Assembly: GCA_035362335.1 (NCBI GenBank)
Contig: DAOSDL010000009.1
Location: forward strand, 208-64,207
Reading direction: 5' to 3'
Length of the DNA stretch: 64,000 bases
DNA from: Bacteroidota bacterium
GTDB lineage: Bacteria > Bacteroidota > Ignavibacteria > SZUA-365
Shown here: positions 12 through 57,425 of the stretch, piece by piece
Position numbering within the stretch: the first letter of the stretch is position 1
Layout: every line of letters starts with the position of its first letter
Program-made: the position numbers and the translations under genes
The notes under the pieces: generated by a model
Told to the model about the DNA's origin: nothing
What the model saw: the letters and a program-made list of their open reading frames with translations, nothing else
Databases searched by the model: none

Positions 12-569
12 TTACCGAACGGTGAATTGCGCCGTCCGACTGCCCTCCGGTCCTGTTACTCGAAGGAAATACAAACCTGCGGGGAGCGCAGGGAGGCGCA
101 GCGCATGATTTGCGCCGCGAGCACCTTCCATATCCTGTCGCTGTAATTCCACACCAAGCACGCTGTGAATGCGCAGTGTTTGCGCACCTTCAAACGGAAG
201 TGCGACTGTCACAGTAGCGGCTGCGGAAGCGATACTCGGGAATAGCACTAATCGACTGTCGTTCGGGAAGCTCACCGCCCGATGTTGCTCAGCTTGCTTC
301 GGCGTGGGCGACTCGTGAAAGTAATGGTCGCGCGAAAGCGTCATACTGTAAGAACCGGTCACAAACGGTCCACGCCAGGCCGTGGTATGCAGCGTCACCG
401 TCGCTTGTTGCACACCGCTGGGAAGCTCCAGTCCAATGATGAGCGTGGTGTCGGCCTTCCCGGGCGGTATACGGTACTCACCACCACGAACAAGCACGGT
501 GTTGGTGAGGACGTCACCGACGGTGCAGGTTTCACATAGGGTCAAGGTGCCTCCTTTCTCACTTTCCAC
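12..569 (-). CDS. T9SS C-terminal sorting domain protein, probable fragment (no N-terminal signal peptide from the annotated Met)
   Basis: C-terminus ...LPAGLYFLRVTGPEGSRTAQFTVR matches the Por/T9SS CTD pattern. The ORF begins without a signal peptide. A MITE-like element and repeat array lie immediately upstream. Confidence 0.45.
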   Translation of the reverse strand: MESEKGGTLTLCETCTVGDVLTNTVLVRGGEYRIPPGKADTTLIIGLELPSGVQQATVTLHTTAWRGPFVTGSYSMTLSRDHYFHESPTPKQAEQHRAVSFPNDSRLVLFPSIASAAATVTVALPFEGAQTLRIHSVLGVELQRQDMEGARGANHALRLPALPAGLYFLRVTGPEGSRTAQFTVR

Positions 570-849
570 ATCAATGCGAGTTCAGGCAAAGCGGTATGTA
601 TCTGATGTGCTTTCCCAATAACCGTCAATGATGCGACACCATCATGGACATTTCCACGACGTTCACATGCCATAACACCCGCCAATCGGGTCACTGCTCG
701 CGTCGCATTCGGTGGAACGCCCGCAAGGTAAGGATTATCGGAGCAATTTGTCAAGAGATAGACGTTTTGAATTTTCTCGTGCTTACATGCTCGGTTGCGC
801 ATCACACGCTTTACGTCCAAACGCACATTCAGCACCCGCTGGCCAGCCC

Positions 850-1201
850 CCGGATTTCGTCATTTCAGCACCCGTGACACGGGAGGAAGCACAATTTCCG
901 CCTCGCTGCAGAAAGCTCATTGATTCGCGAAACGAGAACAACTCCCTCTCGTCACGTTGCGTCTCTGCTTCTCTGCGACGTTGCGTTCCATTCTTCTGAA
1001 GTCAGAAGGGAATGCAACGAAAAGATGCCAAGGCGCAATGACAGAAAGTAATGGCTATTCTCACGAGCCCTGTCGTTTTGTGAAATAGACGCCTACGCCC
1101 TGATATCGCTATTGCAGCACCCAGATCACAAGCGGAGCCCCCGTAAGTCATTGAAAACAATGATTCACATTTGCAATCCTGAAAAGCGTGGCGAAATCAG
1201 G
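850..1201. repeat. MITE-like element copy A (~350 bp, with ~90-bp internal insertion/partial duplication). Termini CCGGATTTCGTCA...GCGAAATCAGG.
   Basis: Near-identical to 2369-2624 over ~250 bp. Terminal inverted repeats are CCTGATTTCGCCA / TGGCGAAATCAGG. Contains stem-loop CATTCTTCTGAagTCAGAAGGGAATG. Confidence 0.6.
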
Positions 1202-1245
1202 AATATCGGCACGGGATGCTCGCGTCTGGTCTTGGACTTGGTCAG

Positions 1246-2360
1246 GGCTATTCACTGAATATGTCGACCGGAACAGTACGACCTCCATGACGGGATCAAT
1301 TTCGCGTGAGCGAAACCGATGACGTCGGCGCGGAGGCCAAGGATCGGGATTTGGCTATTCAGTGAATATGCCAGCTGATGCCGCTGGTAAGGGCCGAGGT
1401 TCCGGGCTTGGCTATTCAGTGAACATGCCAGCTGATGCCGCTGGCGAGGGTCGAGGTCCTGGGTTTGGCTATTCAGTGAATATGCCAGCTGATGCCGCTG
1501 GCGAGAGCCGAGATCCCGGGCTTGGCTATTCAGTGAACAACCCACGCCCTGAGCGGAAAGGCGGAGCGGGCGGGCCAGGATTAGGCTATTCACTGAATGA
1601 CCCACGCTCGGCGCGGAAAGACGGAGCGGGCGACGGGGATTTGGCTATTCAGTGAACATGCCAGCCGATGCCGCTGGCGAGGGTCGAGGTCCCGGGCCTG
1701 GCTATTCAGTGAACAACCCACGCCCTGAGCGGAAAGGCGGAGCGGGCGGGCCAGGATTTGGCTATTCAGTGAACATGCCAGCCGATGCCGCTGGTAAGGG
1801 TCGAGGTCCCGGGCTTGGCTATTCAGTGAACATGCCAGCCGATGCCGCTGGCGAAGGTCGATGTCCCGAGCTTGGCTATTCAGTGAACAACCCACGCCCT
1901 GAGCGGAAGGACGGAGCGGGCGGGCCAGGATTTGGCTATTCACTGAATGACCCACGCTCGGCGCGGAAGGCGGAGCTGTCGGGCCAGGATTTGGCTATTC
2001 ACTGAATGACCCACGCTCGGCGCGGAAGGCGGAGCTGTCGGCGGGGATTTGGCTATTCAGTGAATATGCCAGCCGATGCCGCTGGCGAGGGTCGAGGTCC
2101 CGGGCTTGGCTATTCAGTGAACAACCCACGCTCAGCGCGGAAAGGCGGAGCGGGCGGGCCAGGATTTGGCTATTCAGTGAACATGCCAGCCGATGCCGCT
2201 GGCGAGGGCCGAGGTCCCGGGCTTGGCTATTCAGTGAACAACCCACGCCCTGAGCGGAAGGCGGAGCGGGCGGCGGGGATTTGGCTATTCAGTGAATATG
2301 TCGGATGGGGATACTCGCGCCTGATCTCGGATTCGGACTTGGCTATTCACTGAATATGTC
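1246..2360. repeat. Tandem array 1: ~19 copies of a 56-60-bp unit with conserved 22-bp core GGNTTGGCTATTCA(G/C)TGAA(C/T)A and recurrent GC-rich ~36-bp 'spacers'
   Basis: Core occurrences at ~1246, 1351, 1408, 1464 ... 2281, 2341. Spacers fall into 3 families. Overlapping ORFs on both strands are frame-broken, so the array is non-coding. Confidence 0.85.
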
Positions 2361-2368
2361 TGGCCGAA

Positions 2369-2624
2369 CCTGATTTCGCCATTGCAGCACCCGAGACACG
2401 GGAGGAAGCACAATTTCCTCCTCGCAGCAGAAAGCTCATTGATTCTCGAAACGAGAACAACTCCCTCGCGTCACGTTGCGTCTCTGCTTCTCTGCGACGT
2501 TGCGTTCCATTCTTCTGAAATCAGAAGGGAATGCGACGAAACGACGCCAAGGCGCAATGACGGAAATAAGTCATTGATAACAATGATTCACATTGGCAAT
2601 CCCGAAAATCGTGGTGAAGTCAGG
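2369..2624. repeat. MITE-like element copy B (256 bp) with 13-bp terminal inverted repeats
   Basis: Starts CCTGATTTCGCCATTGCAGCACCCG and ends GTGGTGAAGTCAGG (reverse complement of the start). Direct-orientation duplicate of 850-1201. Confidence 0.6.
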
Positions 2625-3012
2625 CCACGGCGTCCACCACGGCGCGTAGCGTTTCCTCGACTTCGTCGGGAATGTCGCCGAGTCCCGCGTCGGGCATGAT
2701 GGCATTCATGGCCGAGGGACGCATGAGCTGCACCATGGTATGCTCGCCATCGGCGTATACCACAATGCGACACGGCAGCATCATGCCCACCGGCTTGAAG
2801 GCGCTGATGGCCTGAAAGGCGTAACGTGCGTTACACACCTCGATGATGCTGTAGGAGGGAATGTCGAAACCCTTGTCCCTGAGTGTGGCCTGCACGTCAT
2901 GCACGTGCAGTGTGCGGAAACCGCGCTCGAGAGCCGCGTCCTGCACCGCATTCACCACATCCGCAAAGGGCTTGGAAGAGGTCTTGCTGTATTCGAGTTG
3001 CGAAAGATCCAT
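2620..3012 (-). CDS. DUF302-family protein
   Basis: 130 aa with the size and pattern of DUF302 proteins. The stop codon lies inside the terminal repeat of MITE copy B. Confidence 0.6.
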   Translation of the reverse strand: MDLSQLEYSKTSSKPFADVVNAVQDAALERGFRTLHVHDVQATLRDKGFDIPSYSIIEVCNARYAFQAISAFKPVGMMLPCRIVVYADGEHTMVQLMRPSAMNAIMPDAGLGDIPDEVEETLRAVVDAVA

Positions 3013-3113
3013 GTCGTACTCCGTTCATCGTTCCATTCAACGGACATCGTATCGTGTGCCGGCCGATGTCGCCTGCGTTATGCATGTCGGATGCGCGGAG
3101 TGCGCGGGGAGAT

Positions 3114-4758: not shown

Positions 4759-5385
4759 TCAGCGCTTGGTGCATACGAGCAAACCGTCGCGCAGAGGGAG
4801 AATCATCGCATCGCAGGCGGGATCGGCAAAGGCCATGCGATTCAATTCCACCACGCCCCGTGTTGAAGCGCTGTCGTCGCCTTCGAGCATGCGCCCGCTC
4901 CACAGCGCATTGTCGAATATCAGCAAGCCGCCGCGACGCACGCGGGGAAGCGCCGCGCGGTAGGCGTCCGGATACTCGTGCTTGTCGATGTCGCAGAAGA
5001 TCATATCGAACATACCCTCCACTGTCGAGAATACCGTCAGCGCATCGCCCACGTGCATGGTGATGTTCTCTTCCACGCCGGCGCGCGCGAAGGCCTCGCG
5101 CGCCCGTCGGGCATTCTCCGCATCGCCATCGGTGCAGATGATGCGCGCATCGGCGTGCAGGGCCGCGGCAACATGCAAGGCCGAGTACCCGAAGCCCGAC
5201 CCCAGCTCCATGACCCGGCGCGCGTCGATCAGCGTTGCCAGGCGCGCGATAGCCACTCCGGCGAGCGGGCCGATGATGGGGAAGCGATGTTCCGCCGCCC
5301 AGGCCTCCATTTCCCGCAGCACTTCGGAGCGCTGCGGCAGCAGTTCCAGCATGTAGTGTTCGATTCGCTCATCGACAATGCGCAT
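4759..5385 (-). CDS. Class I SAM-dependent O-methyltransferase (caffeoyl-CoA OMT-like, family 3)
   Basis: VMELGSGFGYSALHVA SAM-binding motif. ~208 aa, typical family-3 OMT size. Confidence 0.75.
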   Translation of the reverse strand: MRIVDERIEHYMLELLPQRSEVLREMEAWAAEHRFPIIGPLAGVAIARLATLIDARRVMELGSGFGYSALHVAAALHADARIICTDGDAENARRAREAFARAGVEENITMHVGDALTVFSTVEGMFDMIFCDIDKHEYPDAYRAALPRVRRGGLLIFDNALWSGRMLEGDDSASTRGVVELNRMAFADPACDAMILPLRDGLLVCTKR

Positions 5386-10887: not shown

Positions 10888-12243
10888 TCAACGCTCCGGG
10901 CTTTCGTGCGTGACCTTCGGCCATTCGCGCACGCCTTCGGCATCGACGGTGGAAAGAATGAGCGCCGGATGTTCCGGAATTCCATCCGCGATACGAAACG
11001 CGGCGGTGGCGCGCTCGCGAAACGCGACGAGGCTCTCTACTGTCGACGAGCAGAGTCGACACAGTGCTTCGTCCTCAGCGACAGCATCACCGCGTTTTTT
11101 CAATACAATGATGCCCGCAGTGTGATCGACCATGTCGCTCGAACGCCGTCTGCCTGCACCGATTTCCGTCGCGATCATACCAAGCGTACGAGCGTTGATC
11201 CCTTGCACCACTCCAGATCGCGGCGCGGGCACGTCCACCATGGAGCGGGGATTCGGGTAACGGAGAGTATCCTCCACCATGGTCACATCACCACCTTGAG
11301 CGCGGACGAGTGCTAGCCAGCGTTCCCACGCAAGACCCGAACGCACGGTTTCGCGGGCAATCGCCATACCTTCCTCAACGCTTTGGGCCTTCCGTCCTTC
11401 ATGGAGCATCACTCCTGCGAGAGCGTAGGTCACCTCCATGAGATCGGGACTTGAGCGGCCTTGCAGGCAATCCACCACTTCCACTACTTCCAGCCATGAG
11501 CCGATAGCGCGGCCGAGAGGTTCGCTCATATCCGTGATCAGGGCGGTCGTGGTCAGACCGAAGTGCCCGCCGACACGGACCAGCAGACGAGCAAGCTCCT
11601 CCGCCTCTTCCCGTCGTTGCATGAAGGCGCCTTCGCCGGTTTTGACATCGAGCACCAGCGCATCCGCGCCGGTTACGATTTTCTTGCTCATGATACTCGC
11701 CGCAATGAACGGCAAAATCTCCACCGTGGCGGTCACGTCGCGTAGCGCGTACATCCTTTTGTCCAGCGGAACCAGTCCCTCGCTTTGGCCTGCGAGCACT
11801 GCACCAGTTTGATCGAGTATGCGCAGAAACTCCGATGAACCCAGTGTGGTACGGAAGCCTGGAATACTCTCCAGTTTGTCCAGTGTTCCACCGGTGTGTC
11901 CCAATGCTCGACCAGACATCATCGGCACTCGCACACCCGCCGCCGCGACGATAGGTGCCAGCAACAGCGAGGTTTTGTCCCCCACACCGCCGGTGGAGTG
12001 CTTGTCCACCTTCCGGCCCTGTACGCTTGATAAATCCAGCCGTGTACCGGAATCGATGAACAGTTGCGTAAGCAGCAACGCCTCCTGCTCGTCGGGAGGA
12101 TGGAAGTAACTGGCCATGAGAAACGCGGCCATCTGATAGTCCGCAACCTCCCCTGCCAGATATCCGGCAAAGAATTCACGCAGCTCGTCCGACGACAGTG
12201 TCAGTCCGTCACGCCGTTTTCGAATGGTTTCTTGTGGAAGCAT
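10888..12243 (-). CDS. Thymidine/pyrimidine-nucleoside phosphorylase
   Basis: KHSTGGVGDKTSL motif and glycosyltransferase family 3 architecture. 451 aa. Confidence 0.85.
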   Translation of the reverse strand: MLPQETIRKRRDGLTLSSDELREFFAGYLAGEVADYQMAAFLMASYFHPPDEQEALLLTQLFIDSGTRLDLSSVQGRKVDKHSTGGVGDKTSLLLAPIVAAAGVRVPMMSGRALGHTGGTLDKLESIPGFRTTLGSSEFLRILDQTGAVLAGQSEGLVPLDKRMYALRDVTATVEILPFIAASIMSKKIVTGADALVLDVKTGEGAFMQRREEAEELARLLVRVGGHFGLTTTALITDMSEPLGRAIGSWLEVVEVVDCLQGRSSPDLMEVTYALAGVMLHEGRKAQSVEEGMAIARETVRSGLAWERWLALVRAQGGDVTMVEDTLRYPNPRSMVDVPAPRSGVVQGINARTLGMIATEIGAGRRRSSDMVDHTAGIIVLKKRGDAVAEDEALCRLCSSTVESLVAFRERATAAFRIADGIPEHPALILSTVDAEGVREWPKVTHESPER

Positions 12244-12574: not shown

Positions 12575-13399
12575 ATGATGCAACTTGAGATACCCTATCG
12601 GCACGCGCGCGCGCGCGGCCACAACTACTCCGAACCCGGCACCTACTGCCTGCGACTCGAAACCGCAGGCGAAGAGGCGTTGTTCGGCGAGGACGGCGAC
12701 GGCGGGCTGCGGCTCAACGCCTTCGCGGAAATCGCCTTCGAGAAGCTCGCCCTCGCCGTGCAGCGTTACCCCTGTCTGCGCCTGGACGCAGCGCGCTTCA
12801 CGCCCGACGCGCTTGAAATCCTTGTGACCATTACCGAGTACCGCAATCACAAGGCGGAGAATCCGGAGCTGTGGGGAAATCGCCTTCGCGCGCGTCGTCT
12901 GATGACCATCCCCATGTTCGTGGGCTTTCTGAAAATGAACAGCGCCCGAGCCATCAACACCGCGCGCGGCACACGTGGACGCGCCGTGTGGAAACGGCGT
13001 TACCACGATTGCATCGTCGCGGAGGCTGGAGAAATCCAGAATATCCGCTGCGCATTCAACGCTGCGATGCAGCGTACGCAGCTCACGCGCGACAAGGCGA
13101 ATCCCTCGGTGCGCAATCTGCGCACCGTGCTGAACGAGGCCTTTGCGCTGTTCGGTGAGGATCACGCCCGGGCACCGCGGTCCGAGGCGCAGCCAACCTC
13201 CGGATTGCTCATGCTCGGCCGCGCGGTGTTCCTGCGAGACACCGTACTGAGATCGCCATCCATGGTTTCGGCATCGTCTCGAACTGGTAAGGGGAAAAAG
13301 AAGCGATCCCCCACGGTAACGGAAATGGTGGACGCCTCGCTGGCGATGCTGCACACCGTGGATCCGGAGGCGATGTTGCTATCGATGGCGCCGGGGTAG
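12575..13399 (+). CDS. IS200/IS605-like (RAYT-like) Y1-transposase-fold protein with degenerate HuH motif. Possibly domesticated.
   Basis: Aligns by eye to IS200 TnpA. GTYCLRLETAG..ALFG matches the YHIVF..AFYG strand. PDALEILVTI replaces the HuH segment (both His lost). FVGFLKMNSARAIN and AVWKRRYHDCIV match FMGYLKGKSSLMLY and FWCRGYYVDTV (catalytic-Tyr region kept). RBS GGAG lies upstream of the ATG at 12575. Confidence 0.5.
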   Translation: MMQLEIPYRHARARGHNYSEPGTYCLRLETAGEEALFGEDGDGGLRLNAFAEIAFEKLALAVQRYPCLRLDAARFTPDALEILVTITEYRNHKAENPELWGNRLRARRLMTIPMFVGFLKMNSARAINTARGTRGRAVWKRRYHDCIVAEAGEIQNIRCAFNAAMQRTQLTRDKANPSVRNLRTVLNEAFALFGEDHARAPRSEAQPTSGLLMLGRAVFLRDTVLRSPSMVSASSRTGKGKKKRSPTVTEMVDASLAMLHTVDPEAMLLSMAPG

Positions 13400-13664
13400 T
13401 GCATCAGGATATAGGACGGGATGGTCCGCGATAGGCCGTCGCATCCGCTTGCTGTAATCGATTGATTTCCGAGTGAGGTCCGAAGCGCCCCGCGGCGATT
13501 CGCGGGAGAGCTATGCGCGGAGGCGGAGGATTTGGGACGTGGGAGTGGTTTTTCCGAGGTTGTCGCGGACGTTCAGCGATTTCGGAGCTTACGGTATTGT
13601 GAAATTCGGGGAAATCGGCTGGGGGGCGGGGCGGTCGAGGGCTGAGATTGCGGGTTCGGGGTGG

Positions 13665-14270
13665 GGATTTGGCTATTCACTGAATAACCCATGCCCGGAT
13701 CGGGAGGCGGCGCGGTCGGCCCGGATTTGGCTATTCACTGAATATCTCAGCCGGGCCGGGGTGCACGGAGACCAGGGTCTGGATTTGGCTATTCACTGAA
13801 TAACCCTGGCCTTGCGACGGGAGGTGGCGCTGTCGGTCCGGATTTGGCTATTCACTGAATAACCCTGGCCTTTGGACGGGAGATGGCGCTGTCGGTCCGG
13901 ATTTGGCTATTCACTGAATAACCCTGGCCTTGGGAGGGGAGGCGGCGCGGTCGGCCCGGATTTGGCTATTCACTGAATATCTCAGCCGGGCCGGGGTGCA
14001 CGGAGACCAGGGTCTGGATTTGGCTATTCACTGAATAACCCTGGCCTTGCGACGGGAGGTGGCGCTGTCGGTCCGGATTTGGCTATTCACTGAATCACCC
14101 ACGCCCTGAGCGGAAGGCTGTGCGGTCGACCCGGATTTGGCTATTCACTCAATATCTCAGCCGGACCGGGGTGCGCGGAGACCAGGGTCTGGATTTGGCT
14201 ATTCACTGAATATGTCAGCTGGCGATGCCCGCGCCGAGTCCTGGTTCCGAGCTTGGCTATTCACTGAATC
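13665..14270. repeat. Tandem array 2: 11 copies of a 58-59-bp unit with core GGATTTGGCTATTCACTGAAT(A/C) and recurrent ~37-bp spacers
   Basis: Core starts at 13669, 13727, 13785, 13844, 13903, 13962, 14020, 14079, 14137, 14195, 14254. Spacer families recur (S2=S6~S9; S3~S4~S5~S7). Confidence 0.85.
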
Positions 14271-14315
14271 ACCCACGCCCTGAGAAGGGTCACGCCTCAC
14301 CCGCGCTTCCACGAT

Positions 14316-14360
14316 TCATCTGTGCTAATCTGTGTAAAATCTGTGCAATCTGTGGTTTTG
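14316..14360. promoter_or_regulatory. Four helically phased ATCTGTG heptamers (iteron-like putative protein-binding array)
   Basis: tcATCTGTGctaATCTGTGtaaaATCTGTGcaATCTGTGg with 9-11-bp spacing. Confidence 0.3.
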
Positions 14361-14525
14361 AAACTCTGCTGATCCGCTCCGACAGTAATCATGGCACACG
14401 CACCATGTTCATTCTCCCGGGTGTGACGAAGGAACATGAAAGACTGTGGTTCCCCCCCCGCAATCCCAACCACGGTCATTGCGCCTTTGCGGCAACGCGT
14501 CTCATTCCCCGCTGCGCTCCCGCAA

Positions 14526-56811: not shown

Positions 56812-57378
56812 ATGAACACACTCGAAGCCAACAGCATACTCCCCGCGCCGCTCGGCGGCTTTCAACATATCGCGCCGGCCGAGGCCCGCAAACGCGCAGC
56901 CCGCATTCGCCTGCTGCTCACCGACAACGATGGCGTGCTGACCGACACCGGCGTGTACTACGGTCCCGACGGCGAACTGGTGAAGCGCTACAGCATACGC
57001 GACGGCATGGGCGTCGAGCGGCTTAAGCTCATCGGCGTGGAAACCGGCATCATCACCGGCGAGAAATCGCTCAATCTCAAACGTCGCGCCGAAAAGCTCC
57101 GCCTCGCGCATCTGTACCTCGGCATCAAGGACAAGACCGCCACCATCGAGGCCATTCGCCGCGCGGCGAATTTGTCCATGGATGAAATCGCCTATATCGG
57201 CGACGATGTGAACGATCTCCGCGCCATGGATCTGATCGGCGAGCGCGGACTGACCGCGGCTCCCGCCGACGCCATGCCGCAGGTGCGCGCCATCGCCCAG
57301 TACCTCTGCGCCTGGAATGGCGGCGCGGGCGCGTTCCGCGATTTCGCCGAGGCGCTGATTACCTTGCGGGGGAGGTGA
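56812..57378 (+). CDS. HAD-family KdsC/YrbI-like phosphatase (Kdo-8-P / KDN-9-P phosphatase type)
   Basis: LLLTDNDGVLTD motif I. IGDDVNDL motif. Confidence 0.8.
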   Translation: MNTLEANSILPAPLGGFQHIAPAEARKRAARIRLLLTDNDGVLTDTGVYYGPDGELVKRYSIRDGMGVERLKLIGVETGIITGEKSLNLKRRAEKLRLAHLYLGIKDKTATIEAIRRAANLSMDEIAYIGDDVNDLRAMDLIGERGLTAAPADAMPQVRAIAQYLCAWNGGAGAFRDFAEALITLRGR

Positions 57379-57425
57379 ATCGGTAATCGTGAATCGTGAA
57401 TCGTTAATCGTTAATCGTGAAATGT
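57377..57425. repeat. Tandem octamer repeat (AATCGTKA)x6 immediately after the KdsC-like stop
   Basis: gaatcggtaatcgtgaatcgtgaatcgttaatcgttaatcgtgaaatg. Confidence 0.5.

Follow-up and report, generated by a model that had tools for sequence, protein, structure and literature searches.

In a 64-kb stretch of DNA from a Bacteroidota bacterium (the window), a tandem array of short palindromic cores (array 1) lies between two near-identical, directly repeated segments, copy A upstream and copy B downstream. The arrangement raises the question of what these segments are and how they came to bracket the array.

Copies A and B are built on a common foldback

BLASTN comparison of copy A with copy B aligned positions 850 to 1047 with 2369 to 2566 without gaps (185/198 identical, 93%) and positions 1144 to 1201 with 2567 to 2624 (52/58 identical, 90%), leaving 96 bases (1048 to 1143) that are extra in copy A. 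Together with recovery of the A-array-B arrangement at 99.9 to 100% identity in five independently assembled contigs (L002 to L005 and L128), these values confirm the near-identity of the two segments that had been noted from the letters alone (here, the sequence-only reading). Variants of copy B (91 to 94%) were found in strains L006 to L010. The elements contain 51 to 52% G+C versus 58 to 62% in their surroundings, and no open reading frame is conserved from copy to copy. The gaps of 44 and 8 bp claimed between array 1 and its flanking copies were reproduced from the core positions, and genes for VWA, methyltransferase, YgjP, ECF sigma, anti-sigma, and DUF302 proteins neighbor the array.

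The 13-nt terminal inverted repeats that had been described are present in both segments. Copy A starts with CCGGATTTCGTCA and ends with TGGCGAAATCAGG, and copy B starts with CCTGATTTCGCCA and ends with TGGTGAAGTCAGG; 11 of 13 positions are complementary in each, and the start of B is complementary to the end of A at 13/13. Across complete copies of the family, 10 to 12 of the 13 positions are complementary within each copy. The internal stem-loop reported for the pair, CATTCTTCTGA-ag/aa-TCAGAAGGGAATG, is likewise seen in both, where the CATTCTTCTGA/TCAGAAGGGAATG stem forms the tip of a long hairpin, M.

The basic unit proved to be not the ~260-bp segment but a foldback of ~103 nt, S, with add-on modules. 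In copy A, the 24-nt S-start motif is followed by a hairpin module of 174 nt, a linker of 51 nt, and then a full S (Table 1). An earlier claim that copy A internally repeats part of its 5' end holds for 24 nt at 1099 to 1122; the extra piece as a whole is instead the linker followed by a complete foldback. Sizes in the family range from 89 to 103 nt for S through 256 nt for B to ~350 nt for A-type copies. Judging from the alignment, copy B is probably a deletion derivative of an A-type copy that lost 96 nt internally. The sequence CTGGCCAG stands before copy A, and in a related copy elsewhere, A', the S-start motif is tandemly doubled.

The cores of array 1 span 1246 to 2354 and number 19, versus 0.01 expected by chance. 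A single 107-nt gap follows the first core, higher-order periods of 117, 176, and 234 nt are present, and a small number of related families account for the variable parts of the units. The core ATTCA-S-TGAAT lengthens to GGCTATTCA-S-TGAATAGCC in several units, a property of the array units and not of the S, A, or B elements. A resemblance between the end of S and the array core was considered and dropped, since the ungapped match within S (6/13) is not significant. The left junction is 75 to 77% identical to internal X-type units (repeat families D3 and D7).

TABLE 1 Positions of repeat modules, arrays, and the associated gene in the window
Feature	Coordinates	Strand	Remarks
Degenerate extra 3' half of the 24-nt S-start motif (CATTCAGCACCCG)	828..840	+	Just upstream of copy A; read from sequence
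Copy A, full A-type composite repeat, 352 nt	850..1201	+	Match to copy B; architecture recurs elsewhere
24-nt S-start motif CCGGATTTCGTCATTTCAGCACCC	850..873	+	Bears left inverted repeat; repeat family D9, S alignment
174-nt multi-hairpin module	874..1047	+	Contains long imperfect hairpin M, ~960-1043, 29 pairs
51-nt linker	1048..1098	+	Present in A-type copies, absent from copy B; alignments of A, A', L124, L125-rev
S, complete ~103-nt foldback	1099..1201	+	13-nt terminal inverted repeat plus internal hairpin AGTCATTG-AAAA-CAATGAyT
Left junction AATATCGGCACGGGATGCTCGCG...	1202..1245	+	Truncated X-type array unit, beginning within a core
Array 1, 19 cores GGCTATTCA(S)TGAA	1246..2360	+	Units 57-60 nt
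Right junction TGGCCGAA	2361..2368	+	Last core to copy B; CTGGCCG(A/G)A also before right-hand S of array 4
Copy B, A-type repeat minus 96 nt internally	2369..2624	+	Matches copy A
Copy B, S-start motif	2369..2392	+
Copy B, 174-nt module	2393..2566	+	M hairpin ~2479-2562
Copy B, last 58 nt of S	2567..2624	+
Gene for 273-aa catalytically dead Y1/HUH transposase homolog (IS200/RAYT-type)	12578..13399	+	Context, not part of the element
Conserved leader of array 2	13400..13665	+
Array 2, 11 cores	13671..14268	+	Follows the dead-Y1 gene

The elements form a dispersed family

Copies A and B belong to a dispersed, multicopy family with conserved terminal inverted repeats. Contigs of the same organism, all from short-read metagenome assemblies that represent essentially one species, contain at least eight copies or fragments, spread over four genomic regions. 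A solo A-type copy with the same architecture as copy A (87%) occupies L124 6860 to 7208, 75 nt downstream of tRNA-His. The A' copy (L001/L121/L127; 85%, same architecture) adjoins an array with at least 14 cores. Contigs L125 and L126 hold four pieces of the family, including one of A-type architecture at L125 10367 to 10632 (78%), and other copies flank a tRNA-Asp gene. S and A-type copies occur away from arrays as well (L124; L125 10367 to 10632 and 11665 to 11805). An S profile (nhmmer) gave matches with E values from 1e-30 to 1e-14 in L124, L125 (three copies), and A'; six distinct copies, full or short, were obtained, and their alignment has a mean column identity of 84%. Homology between loci ends at the element ends. 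A YefM-YoeB gene pair in L125 is bracketed by 222-nt direct repeats bearing M, so the family brackets other cargo too.

Contig L122 was rejected as a family member, its 22-nt match being a chance one in an unrelated low-GC contig. Viral contigs contained no arrays and matched the S motif over only 17 to 20 nt, which is at chance level. Contigs were observed to break within the M hairpin or within arrays.

Capped arrays share junctions and units

Further copies abut core-repeat arrays, on the left side of the A' array and on both sides of array 4 in L125. Array 4 is bracketed by S alone, in direct orientation (L125 9240 to 9328 and 9858 to 9959). The left junction is the same at three arrays (1, A', and 4), reading ...GAAGTC(A/G)GG up to the boundary and AATATCGGCnCG(A/G)GAT beyond it. 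The right junction, GAATATG(C/T)CTGGCCG(A/G)A followed by CCTGATTTCGCC, is the same at arrays 1 and 4, the only two composites seen with both ends, as the right flank of the A' array was never assembled. Read together, the left and right junctions resemble one X-type unit with one S interposed. The outer ends of the composite are complementary at 12 of 13 positions for array 4, and only 9 of 13 match for array 1. All copies at arrays are oriented as the array cores, and the two copies flanking one array may differ in subtype (A versus B, short versus full S).

Arrays 1, A', and 4 have 19, at least 14, and 8 cores, respectively. Their unit repertoires are 87 to 94% identical to one another and 68 to 78% identical to those of six arrays that follow the transposase-like gene described below. 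Array 4 holds a recent duplication of three units (171 nt, 98%).

Contig L001 was considered as an array-variant allele and rejected: its two halves overlap by 191 nt common to both arrays, more than the k of 141 used, and it may be a chimera across arrays. An attempt to rescue the join by synteny with a relative failed, as the two giant kinase-like genes are only 24% identical versus 83% for the ECF sigma factor.

A second array class follows an inactivated Y1 gene

The same cores also occur in uncapped arrays, at four loci here and at four array loci (three of them gene linked) in JAMIQH01, one other metagenome-assembled genome. The latter contains at least four true array loci among the matches listed for the 16-nt core in the genome collection, the other matches listed being mostly single chance ones, and S is absent from all four JAMIQH01 arrays. 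None of the S, A, or B elements was found in the array class that follows the dead-transposase gene, array 2 included.

The best 30 PDB matches of the 273-aa product of this gene are all Y1 transposases, RAYT 4er8 included. Its distant homologs carry PF01797, so sequence homology independently backs the Y1 fold class, for which alone the low-confidence structure model (pLDDT 47) was used. The protein has TPDALE instead of MPNHxH, and neither the histidines of HUH nor the tyrosine motif YIxxNP is present. P0016, a more distant dead-Y1 homolog, has no array downstream, and no Y1 gene adjoins array 1.

Folding and signs of mobility

The S of copy A (1099 to 1201) folds as RNA with z = -3.6, S copies in general reach z = -3.3 to -5.2 on the plus strand, and copy B reaches z = -6.6 on the plus strand versus -3.0 on the minus strand. 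Such scores alone prove little, because any inverted-repeat DNA folds well. Helix 1 of S is 94% paired over six copies, and the six-copy consensus fold of M keeps 29 pairs. The covariation analysis proposed for the element, run on S and M, came out negative: compensatory double changes were seen in 0 of 27 pairs in S and 0 of 29 in M, and covariation showed no excess over shuffles. One-sided changes in the stems of S and M mostly yield U-G pairs on the plus strand. Rfam 15 gave no match at gathering score over the whole window; at E ≤ 1 within 750 to 2700, only three chance-level microRNA models appeared. Scans for sigma-70 promoters and intrinsic terminators from 500 to 3100 were at or below chance.

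No target-site duplication accompanies any copy or composite. At nine boundaries, comprising single copies and composites, abutting direct repeats never reached 3 bp, and the sole match (2 bp around the array 1 composite) is at chance level. The label MITE-like thus holds in part: the elements are small, noncoding, and dispersed and have inverted repeats, but a target-site duplication is absent, and a classical MITE is consequently not shown. In the contigs examined, no insertion sequence or transposase with matching ends was detected, and no recombinase gene was seen adjoining any copy.

At the orthologous position in two related lineages (L129 and L138 to L140), DUF302 is followed directly by a Crp-like gene, with no array and no element; in a further relative (L131), a different gene lies 21 nt downstream of DUF302, again with neither. 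These absences fall at a synteny breakpoint and not at a base-precise empty site. At the DUF302 locus, neither an array-minus allele, which had been suggested as a check, nor a solo-recombinant allele or a circle junction was found in the 10 places listed, of 23 contigs.

Explanations for the bracketed array

The reading that we favor, tentatively and at a strength a little short of probable, is of a BOX-like composite repeat, copied as a unit, in which copies A and B serve as end modules on either side of a tandem array. Each end module would be built on the ~103-nt foldback S with its 13-nt terminal inverted repeats, and the modules would cap an internal array of 57- to 60-nt palindrome-bearing units. 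Everything between the outer boundaries of the left and right S, both S included, would be copied to new sites as one piece, either by transposition via the outer inverted repeats or by excision of a circle of S plus array that then recombines into a resident S. Afterwards, array length would shift by slippage or unequal crossing-over, and copy B would stem from an A-type copy through the 96-nt deletion. Among the options raised by the sequence-only reading, unitary behavior of the composite is the best supported, because the capped arrays agree in both junction sequence and unit repertoire. These common junctions and units could also come from gene conversion between arrays, and it counts against the composite that the sole nearby transposase relative lacks catalytic residues.

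Alternatively, S may be an attachment-like recombination site and not a transposon end, with circles of S plus array excising and reentering at solo S or A-type copies; integration would then recreate S-array-S without a target duplication. The lack of such duplications anywhere fits this idea, as do the solo A-type copy past tRNA-His and the copies flanking tRNA-Asp, the junctions that read as one X-type unit split by a single S, and the differing subtypes around one array, as crossovers would give. No recombinase gene adjoins any copy, however, and the 10 DUF302 places listed yielded no circle junction or solo recombinant. The idea overlaps heavily with the composite repeat and present data fit both; we consider it unlikely as the explanation in its own right. 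S elements might instead be small elements, each mobile by itself, with a preference for inserting at the borders of existing arrays, the array being the target (for example, as hairpin-rich or replication-stalling DNA), so that the bracket arrangement would arise repeatedly. S and A-type copies away from arrays agree with independent mobility, and junction positions fixed relative to the core could mean a sequence-specific target. Against this stand the dead-transposase-linked arrays, which have the same cores without S at four loci here and four in JAMIQH01, the common unit repertoire of the three capped arrays, which independent insertions would not be expected to give, and again the missing target-site duplications; we judge such insertion improbable.

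A role as structured RNA or single-stranded DNA modules (in end protection, processing, or termination of an array transcript, or as small RNAs), with spread being secondary, seems quite unlikely. The structured-RNA option is encouraged by stronger folding on the plus strand, the predominance of U-G changes there, and the uniform core orientation of array-side copies; it is countered by the absence of compensatory pairs, above-shuffle covariation, Rfam matches, and above-chance promoter or terminator signals, and by the general tendency of inverted-repeat DNA to fold. That copy A is a CRISPR-like leader of array 1 is highly improbable. Copy A does lie directly upstream of the array, on its strand, with a G+C content below that of its surroundings, but the leader idea fails because the gene-linked arrays lack this element and carry a conserved leader of another sequence. 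A near-identical copy also lies downstream of array 1, the variable parts of the units form a few related families and not unique spacers, and there are no cas-like genes among the neighbors; on the same grounds, array 1 was rejected as a CRISPR array with leader. An integron attC site was dismissed as well, the S ends CCTGATTTCGCCA and TGGCGAAGTCAGG having neither RYYYAAC nor GTTRRRY by eye. A local segmental duplication or assembly artifact with no wider family could appeal to the window holding only two copies, A and B. Such a duplication is refuted by at least six further copies or fragments in three other regions, and five independent assemblies agree on the arrangement; we give this account next to no weight.

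Relation to known repeat systems

The likeness to BOX is one of working alike and not of membership; it is an analogy in which architecture, not sequence, is compared, and in a genome of the Bacteroidota sequence homology to streptococcal boxA, boxB, or boxC is not to be expected. In Streptococcus pneumoniae and Streptococcus suis, BOX elements consist of a variable tandem array of boxB between a boxA and a boxC end, so that, as in the composite repeat, end modules cap a tandem array of internal modules of ~45 to 60 nt (PMC3049150). In S. suis, larger end modules of 115 to 133 nt surround the same internal module, and lone modules occur (PMC3049150). Both systems have a number of internal modules that varies by locus (here 19, at least 14, and 8), inverted repeats as outer ends, and strong folding of the element as a whole, and in both dispersal appears to be as a unit, which here is suggested by the left junction at three loci and the right at two. 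The systems differ in that BOX end modules are unlike each other, whereas here they are direct copies of one foldback with its own inverted repeats; array length here reaches 19 units (1.1 kb), far more than in BOX; the internal unit occurs also in other arrays, downstream of a gene for a dead Y1 transposase; and BOX is reported to make target-site duplications, of which there are none here.

A pair of MITEs around an integron in Acinetobacter offers a second comparison, a case that reportedly depends on a target-site duplication flanking the composite; no such duplication surrounds the composite here. MITEs of 439 bp lie at both ends of that integron and apparently mobilize the intervening DNA (PMC3934969). 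There, too, two copies of one small noncoding element with terminal inverted repeats bracket cargo, and movement of the composite as a unit has been proposed; the cargo there consists of genes, whereas here it is a noncoding tandem array, save for YefM-YoeB between the M-bearing repeats of L125.

Affinities to REP, BIME, and REPIN sequences concern the arrays. The array core GGCTATTCA-S-TGAATAGCC is likewise a short extragenic palindrome, one array class directly adjoins a Y1/HUH homolog much as REP clusters flank RAYT genes, and the noncoding modules share the mosaic organization of BIMEs (PMC6006769; PMC3116915). Unlike RAYTs, the Y1 homolog of the present arrays has neither the histidines of HUH nor a YIxxNP tyrosine motif. 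REP sequences are scattered inverted doublets, whereas the units here form head-to-tail arrays with a 57- to 60-nt period; the 14-nt core GGCTATTCA(S)TGAA, taken by itself, has no GTAG or CGTC tag, and REP systems have no counterpart to the S, A, and B elements. A broader proposal, which we regard as improbable, is that the capped arrays represent cassettes, mobile or excisable, that belong to an array system not yet described. Each genome would carry at least four paralogous dead Y1 (RAYT-like) proteins, each followed by a conserved leader and then by hairpin units in a polar array that decays distally, and the S foldbacks would be the sites by which segments of these arrays exit the Y1 loci and become established elsewhere. 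A domesticated single-stranded DNA transposase would thus act as an array-binding or array-building factor, equipped with a dispersal module of its own.

Implications

These repeats break short-read assemblies and may create chimeric joins, which matters for the binning of this lineage. If the composite-repeat reading is true, the locus would represent a modular repeat of BOX-like design from a phylum in which hardly any have been described, with an internal module common to arrays behind inactivated RAYT-type transposase genes. It would thereby link modular MITE-like composites with REP/RAYT systems, two poorly understood classes of bacterial noncoding repeats, and would provide a concrete case for how tandem arrays are seeded at new loci.

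Anatomy of the element flanking array 1

Copies A and B, the two segments that enclose tandem array 1, shared 93% identity over 198 nt and 90% over the last 58 nt, confirming their near-identity as first read from the sequence. Both start CC(G/T)GATTTCG(T/C)CA and end TGG(C/T)GAA(A/G)TCAGG, and the 13-nt inverted ends ascribed to them held up: complementarity was 11/13 within each copy and 13/13 for the start of B versus the end of A. Array 1 comprises 19 cores of the form GGCTATTCA(S)TGAA, all on the + strand (chance expectation, ∼0.01 matches), with higher-order periods of 117/176/234 nt. Because the cores span 1246-2354, the array does start 44 bp after A and stop 8 bp before B. The same A-array-B structure was recovered at 99.9 to 100% identity in five independently assembled contigs (L002 to L005 and L128) and is therefore not an assembly artefact of the window.

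Alignment of all copies showed that the basic element is smaller than the ∼260-bp unit first proposed. This element, S, is a ∼103-nt foldback with 13-nt terminal inverted repeats and an internal hairpin (consensus, CCTGATWTCGCCATTGCAGCACCCAAATCACAAGCGGAATCCCCGTAAGTCATTGAAAnCAATGACTCACATTTGCAATCCCGAAAGCGTGGCGAAGTCrGG). Copy A is a four-part composite that ends in a full S, and this A-type architecture was also found at L124, at A' (a further copy with its own array, in L001/L121/L127), and in L125. Copy B has the A-type structure with a 96-nt deletion, which fuses the module to the final 58 nt of S; GTAA is common to both deletion endpoints. Since B is an A-type structure minus 96 nt, the extra bases in copy A did not arise, as had been supposed, by partial duplication of its 5' end; judged from the alignment, they would be the ancestral state. 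The 24-nt S-start motif tends to occur in tandem, with two copies in A' and a degenerate third upstream of copy A.

Positions of the repeat elements, arrays, and associated features
Feature	Sequence	Position	Remark
Degenerate third S-start motif	window	828-840	
Copy A, part 1	window	850-873	24-nt S-start motif
Copy A, part 2	window	874-1047	174-nt multi-hairpin module
Hairpin M	window	∼960-1043	29-pair imperfect hairpin inside the module; stem-loop noted in the sequence-only reading at its tip
Copy A, part 3	window	1048-1098	51-nt linker
Extra bases of copy A	window	1048-1143	96 nt
Copy A, part 4	window	1099-1201	full S, the complete S of the window
Irregular start of array 1	window	1260-1345	
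Copy B	window	2369-2624	
273-aa gene	window	12578-13399	
Array 2	window	13671-14268	
Degenerate distal cores	window	14197-14290	
Degenerate distal cores	L136	11330-11600	
ATCTGTG repeats	window	14318-14354	
ATCTGTG repeats	L058	3168-3195	
ATCTGTG repeats	L119	∼11778-11818	
Match to right arm of M	window	14475-14509	− strand, inverted
Heptad tandem	window	57375-57421	
Heptad-like cluster	L133	∼5070-5110	
tRNA-adjacent site	L124	7286-7361	tRNA-His
S copies flanking array 4	L125	9240-9328, 9858-9959	direct orientation
tRNA-adjacent site	L125	10062-10136	tRNA-Asp, S copies both sides
A-type copy	L125	10367-10632	
222-nt direct repeats	L125	10537-10758, 11710-11931	
Joined A' flank and array 1	L001	10600-11250	

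A dispersed family that caps arrays

No third copy was detected in the 64-kb window, where the sole other match (35 nt, 80%, to the right arm of M) lies past array 2, immediately after the stop codon of a PepSY-like gene, and could be a remnant of the A/B/S repeat family. Scanning of metagenome contigs with a 22-nt stretch of M returned nine loci; one (L122) was rejected as a chance match, and the rest belong to the same organism. These copies lie in other genomic regions, and the pair is thus a part of a dispersed family rather than a local segmental duplication. In L124/L120, tRNA-His is followed after 75 nt by a full A-type copy (87%), with no array core within 10.9 kb of sequence. Other copies do abut core-repeat arrays. 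At L121/L127, the 5'-truncated A' (85%) sits after the terminator of a Por_Secre_tail gene and is followed by at least 14 cores running off the contig end, and at L125/L126/L123, the 8-core array 4 lies between two plain S copies, with tRNA-Asp, a reverse A-type piece, and a further M piece beyond it.

At every capped array the junctions are alike, and homology between loci ends at the element ends. The left-hand junction, seen at three loci, consists of S plus a truncated X-type unit that reads AATATCGGCnCG(A/G)GAT(A/G)CTCGC; in the right-hand one, seen at two loci, GAATATG(C/T)C-TGGCCG(A/G)A separates the last core from S. The variable parts of the units in arrays 1, A', and 4 form one repertoire (mean best-hit identity, 87 to 94%), versus 65 to 78% against six other-class arrays and one orphan array. 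Array 4 contains a 171-nt three-unit duplication at 98%. In array 1, the right-junction-like GAATATGTCGACCGGAAC follows the first core, and the regular array begins after a further ∼70 nt of unique sequence; array 1 may represent a one-unit remnant fused to a larger array.

Element copies are adjacent to tRNA genes in two of the four regions. Separately, a YefM-YoeB toxin-antitoxin pair in L125 (Pfam E = 9e-20 and 8e-7) is enclosed by two M-containing direct repeats of 222 nt (89%). Coding sequence is thus flanked by this family as well, which suggests that the family brackets cargo other than arrays.

Gene-linked arrays

Array 2, built of the same cores as array 1, lies behind a conserved leader of ∼270 nt that separates it from a gene for a 273-aa protein upstream. 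This gene-leader-array order recurs in the same organism at L118, L119, and L136, giving at least four paralogous loci, and in another MAG, JAMIQH01, at L058, L109, and L116; L118 and L109 have downstream sequence in common. None of these loci, window array 2 included, carries S, M, or A-type sequence. Copy A was accordingly rejected as a leader of core arrays, as was the suggestion that the ∼260-bp element is one, and S/A/B elements are not a general feature of such arrays.

The 273-aa protein had no Pfam match, and its close family numbers only 15 members at ≥79% identity. phmmer recovered 962 distant homologs, many with PF01797 (Y1_Tnp), and the top 30 PDB structural matches to a low-confidence model were all IS200/IS605 or RAYT transposases. 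When aligned with canonical members, it has TPDALE in place of the HUH motif MP(N/D)HxH and lacks the YIxxNP tyrosine motif. Given this homology and the missing motifs, the protein is predicted to be a catalytically dead RAYT-type protein, and the array units are thus REP-like palindromes linked to it.

Gene-linked arrays decay away from the gene, with distal cores increasingly degenerate, a polarity reminiscent, by analogy, of leader-proximal renewal. Some of these arrays are closely followed by a conserved cluster of four ATCTGTG repeats. Elsewhere in the window, the heptads GTGAATC/GTTAATC form a short tandem of 6.7 copies, and the array core palindrome likewise has GTGAAT as one of its halves. 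Comparable clustering, of GTGAATC/GATTCAC, occurs in L133 downstream of a distant dead-Y1 gene.

Mobility, possible RNA function, and probable origin of the composite

Of the features expected of a MITE, small size, terminal inverted repeats, and several dispersed copies were all observed, but no target-site duplication was found at nine boundaries of single copies and composites, and MITE identity is not proven. No transposase or recombinase gene was found near the copies, whose G+C content is 51 to 52% versus 58 to 62% in the surroundings. Action as RNA, the other possibility raised for the element, was not supported but may still apply. Folding is strong (+ strand, z = −6.6 for copy B and −3.3 to −5.2 for S; − strand, z = −3.0 for copy B), and one-sided stem substitutions mostly yield U-G pairs on the + strand. 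However, compensatory double changes were absent (0/27 S pairs and 0/29 M pairs), covariation did not exceed that in shuffles, Rfam returned no match, and promoter and terminator scans were at chance.

In two related lineages (71 to 75% protein identity), a Crp-like gene follows the orthologous DUF302 gene by 290 to 380 bp, and in a further relative (L131) a different gene lies 21 nt downstream; no array or element was found downstream of DUF302 in any of these. The array 1 composite thus appears to be a lineage-specific acquisition, but its site is a synteny breakpoint. Taken with the caps at both ends, the identical junctions, the distinct shared repertoire, and the homology that stops at the caps, this presence makes it most likely that the composite was copied as one piece, caps included, as the idea of a composite behaving as a unit had anticipated. 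Array length would then change after copying, as the duplication in array 4 and the periods of array 1 suggest. Two routes fit the missing target duplications. The composite could have transposed through a class of enzyme that does not generate them, or recombination between the direct caps could have released an S-plus-array circle, with later re-entry at a resident S such as the solo copy beside tRNA-His.

The closest functional analogue of the capped arrays is streptococcal BOX, a strongly folding, MITE-like element in which boxA and boxC ends surround a variable tandem boxB array, with larger end modules in S. suis (PMC3049150). In contrast to BOX, one foldback supplies both caps as direct copies, array length is far greater, gene-linked arrays use the internal unit as well, and no target duplication was seen. 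MITE pairs flanking cargo are a second analogue (PMC3934969). The array units resemble REP/BIME beside RAYT genes (PMC6006769), but the protein associated with them lacks the catalytic motifs. The capped-array elements are not assigned to any of these families.

Copy B is present in strains of ∼96 to 98% nucleotide identity (L006 to L010), whose contigs are interrupted within M, the usual effect of a multicopy repeat; four from other samples (L007 to L010) stop at copy B positions 114 to 127. In L001 (ERZ27257444), the A' flank and its Por_Secre_tail gene are joined to array 1, copy B, and DUF302 through 191 nt common to both arrays, longer than the assembler k-mer (k = 141); this contig may be a chimera or a real array-mediated recombinant. 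Overall, the first interpretation is partly supported: the flagged pair belongs to a dispersed family, and the composite appears to act as a unit. The family fragments short-read assemblies of the lineage. The dead-RAYT genes with their polar arrays arguably exceed the flagged element in novelty.
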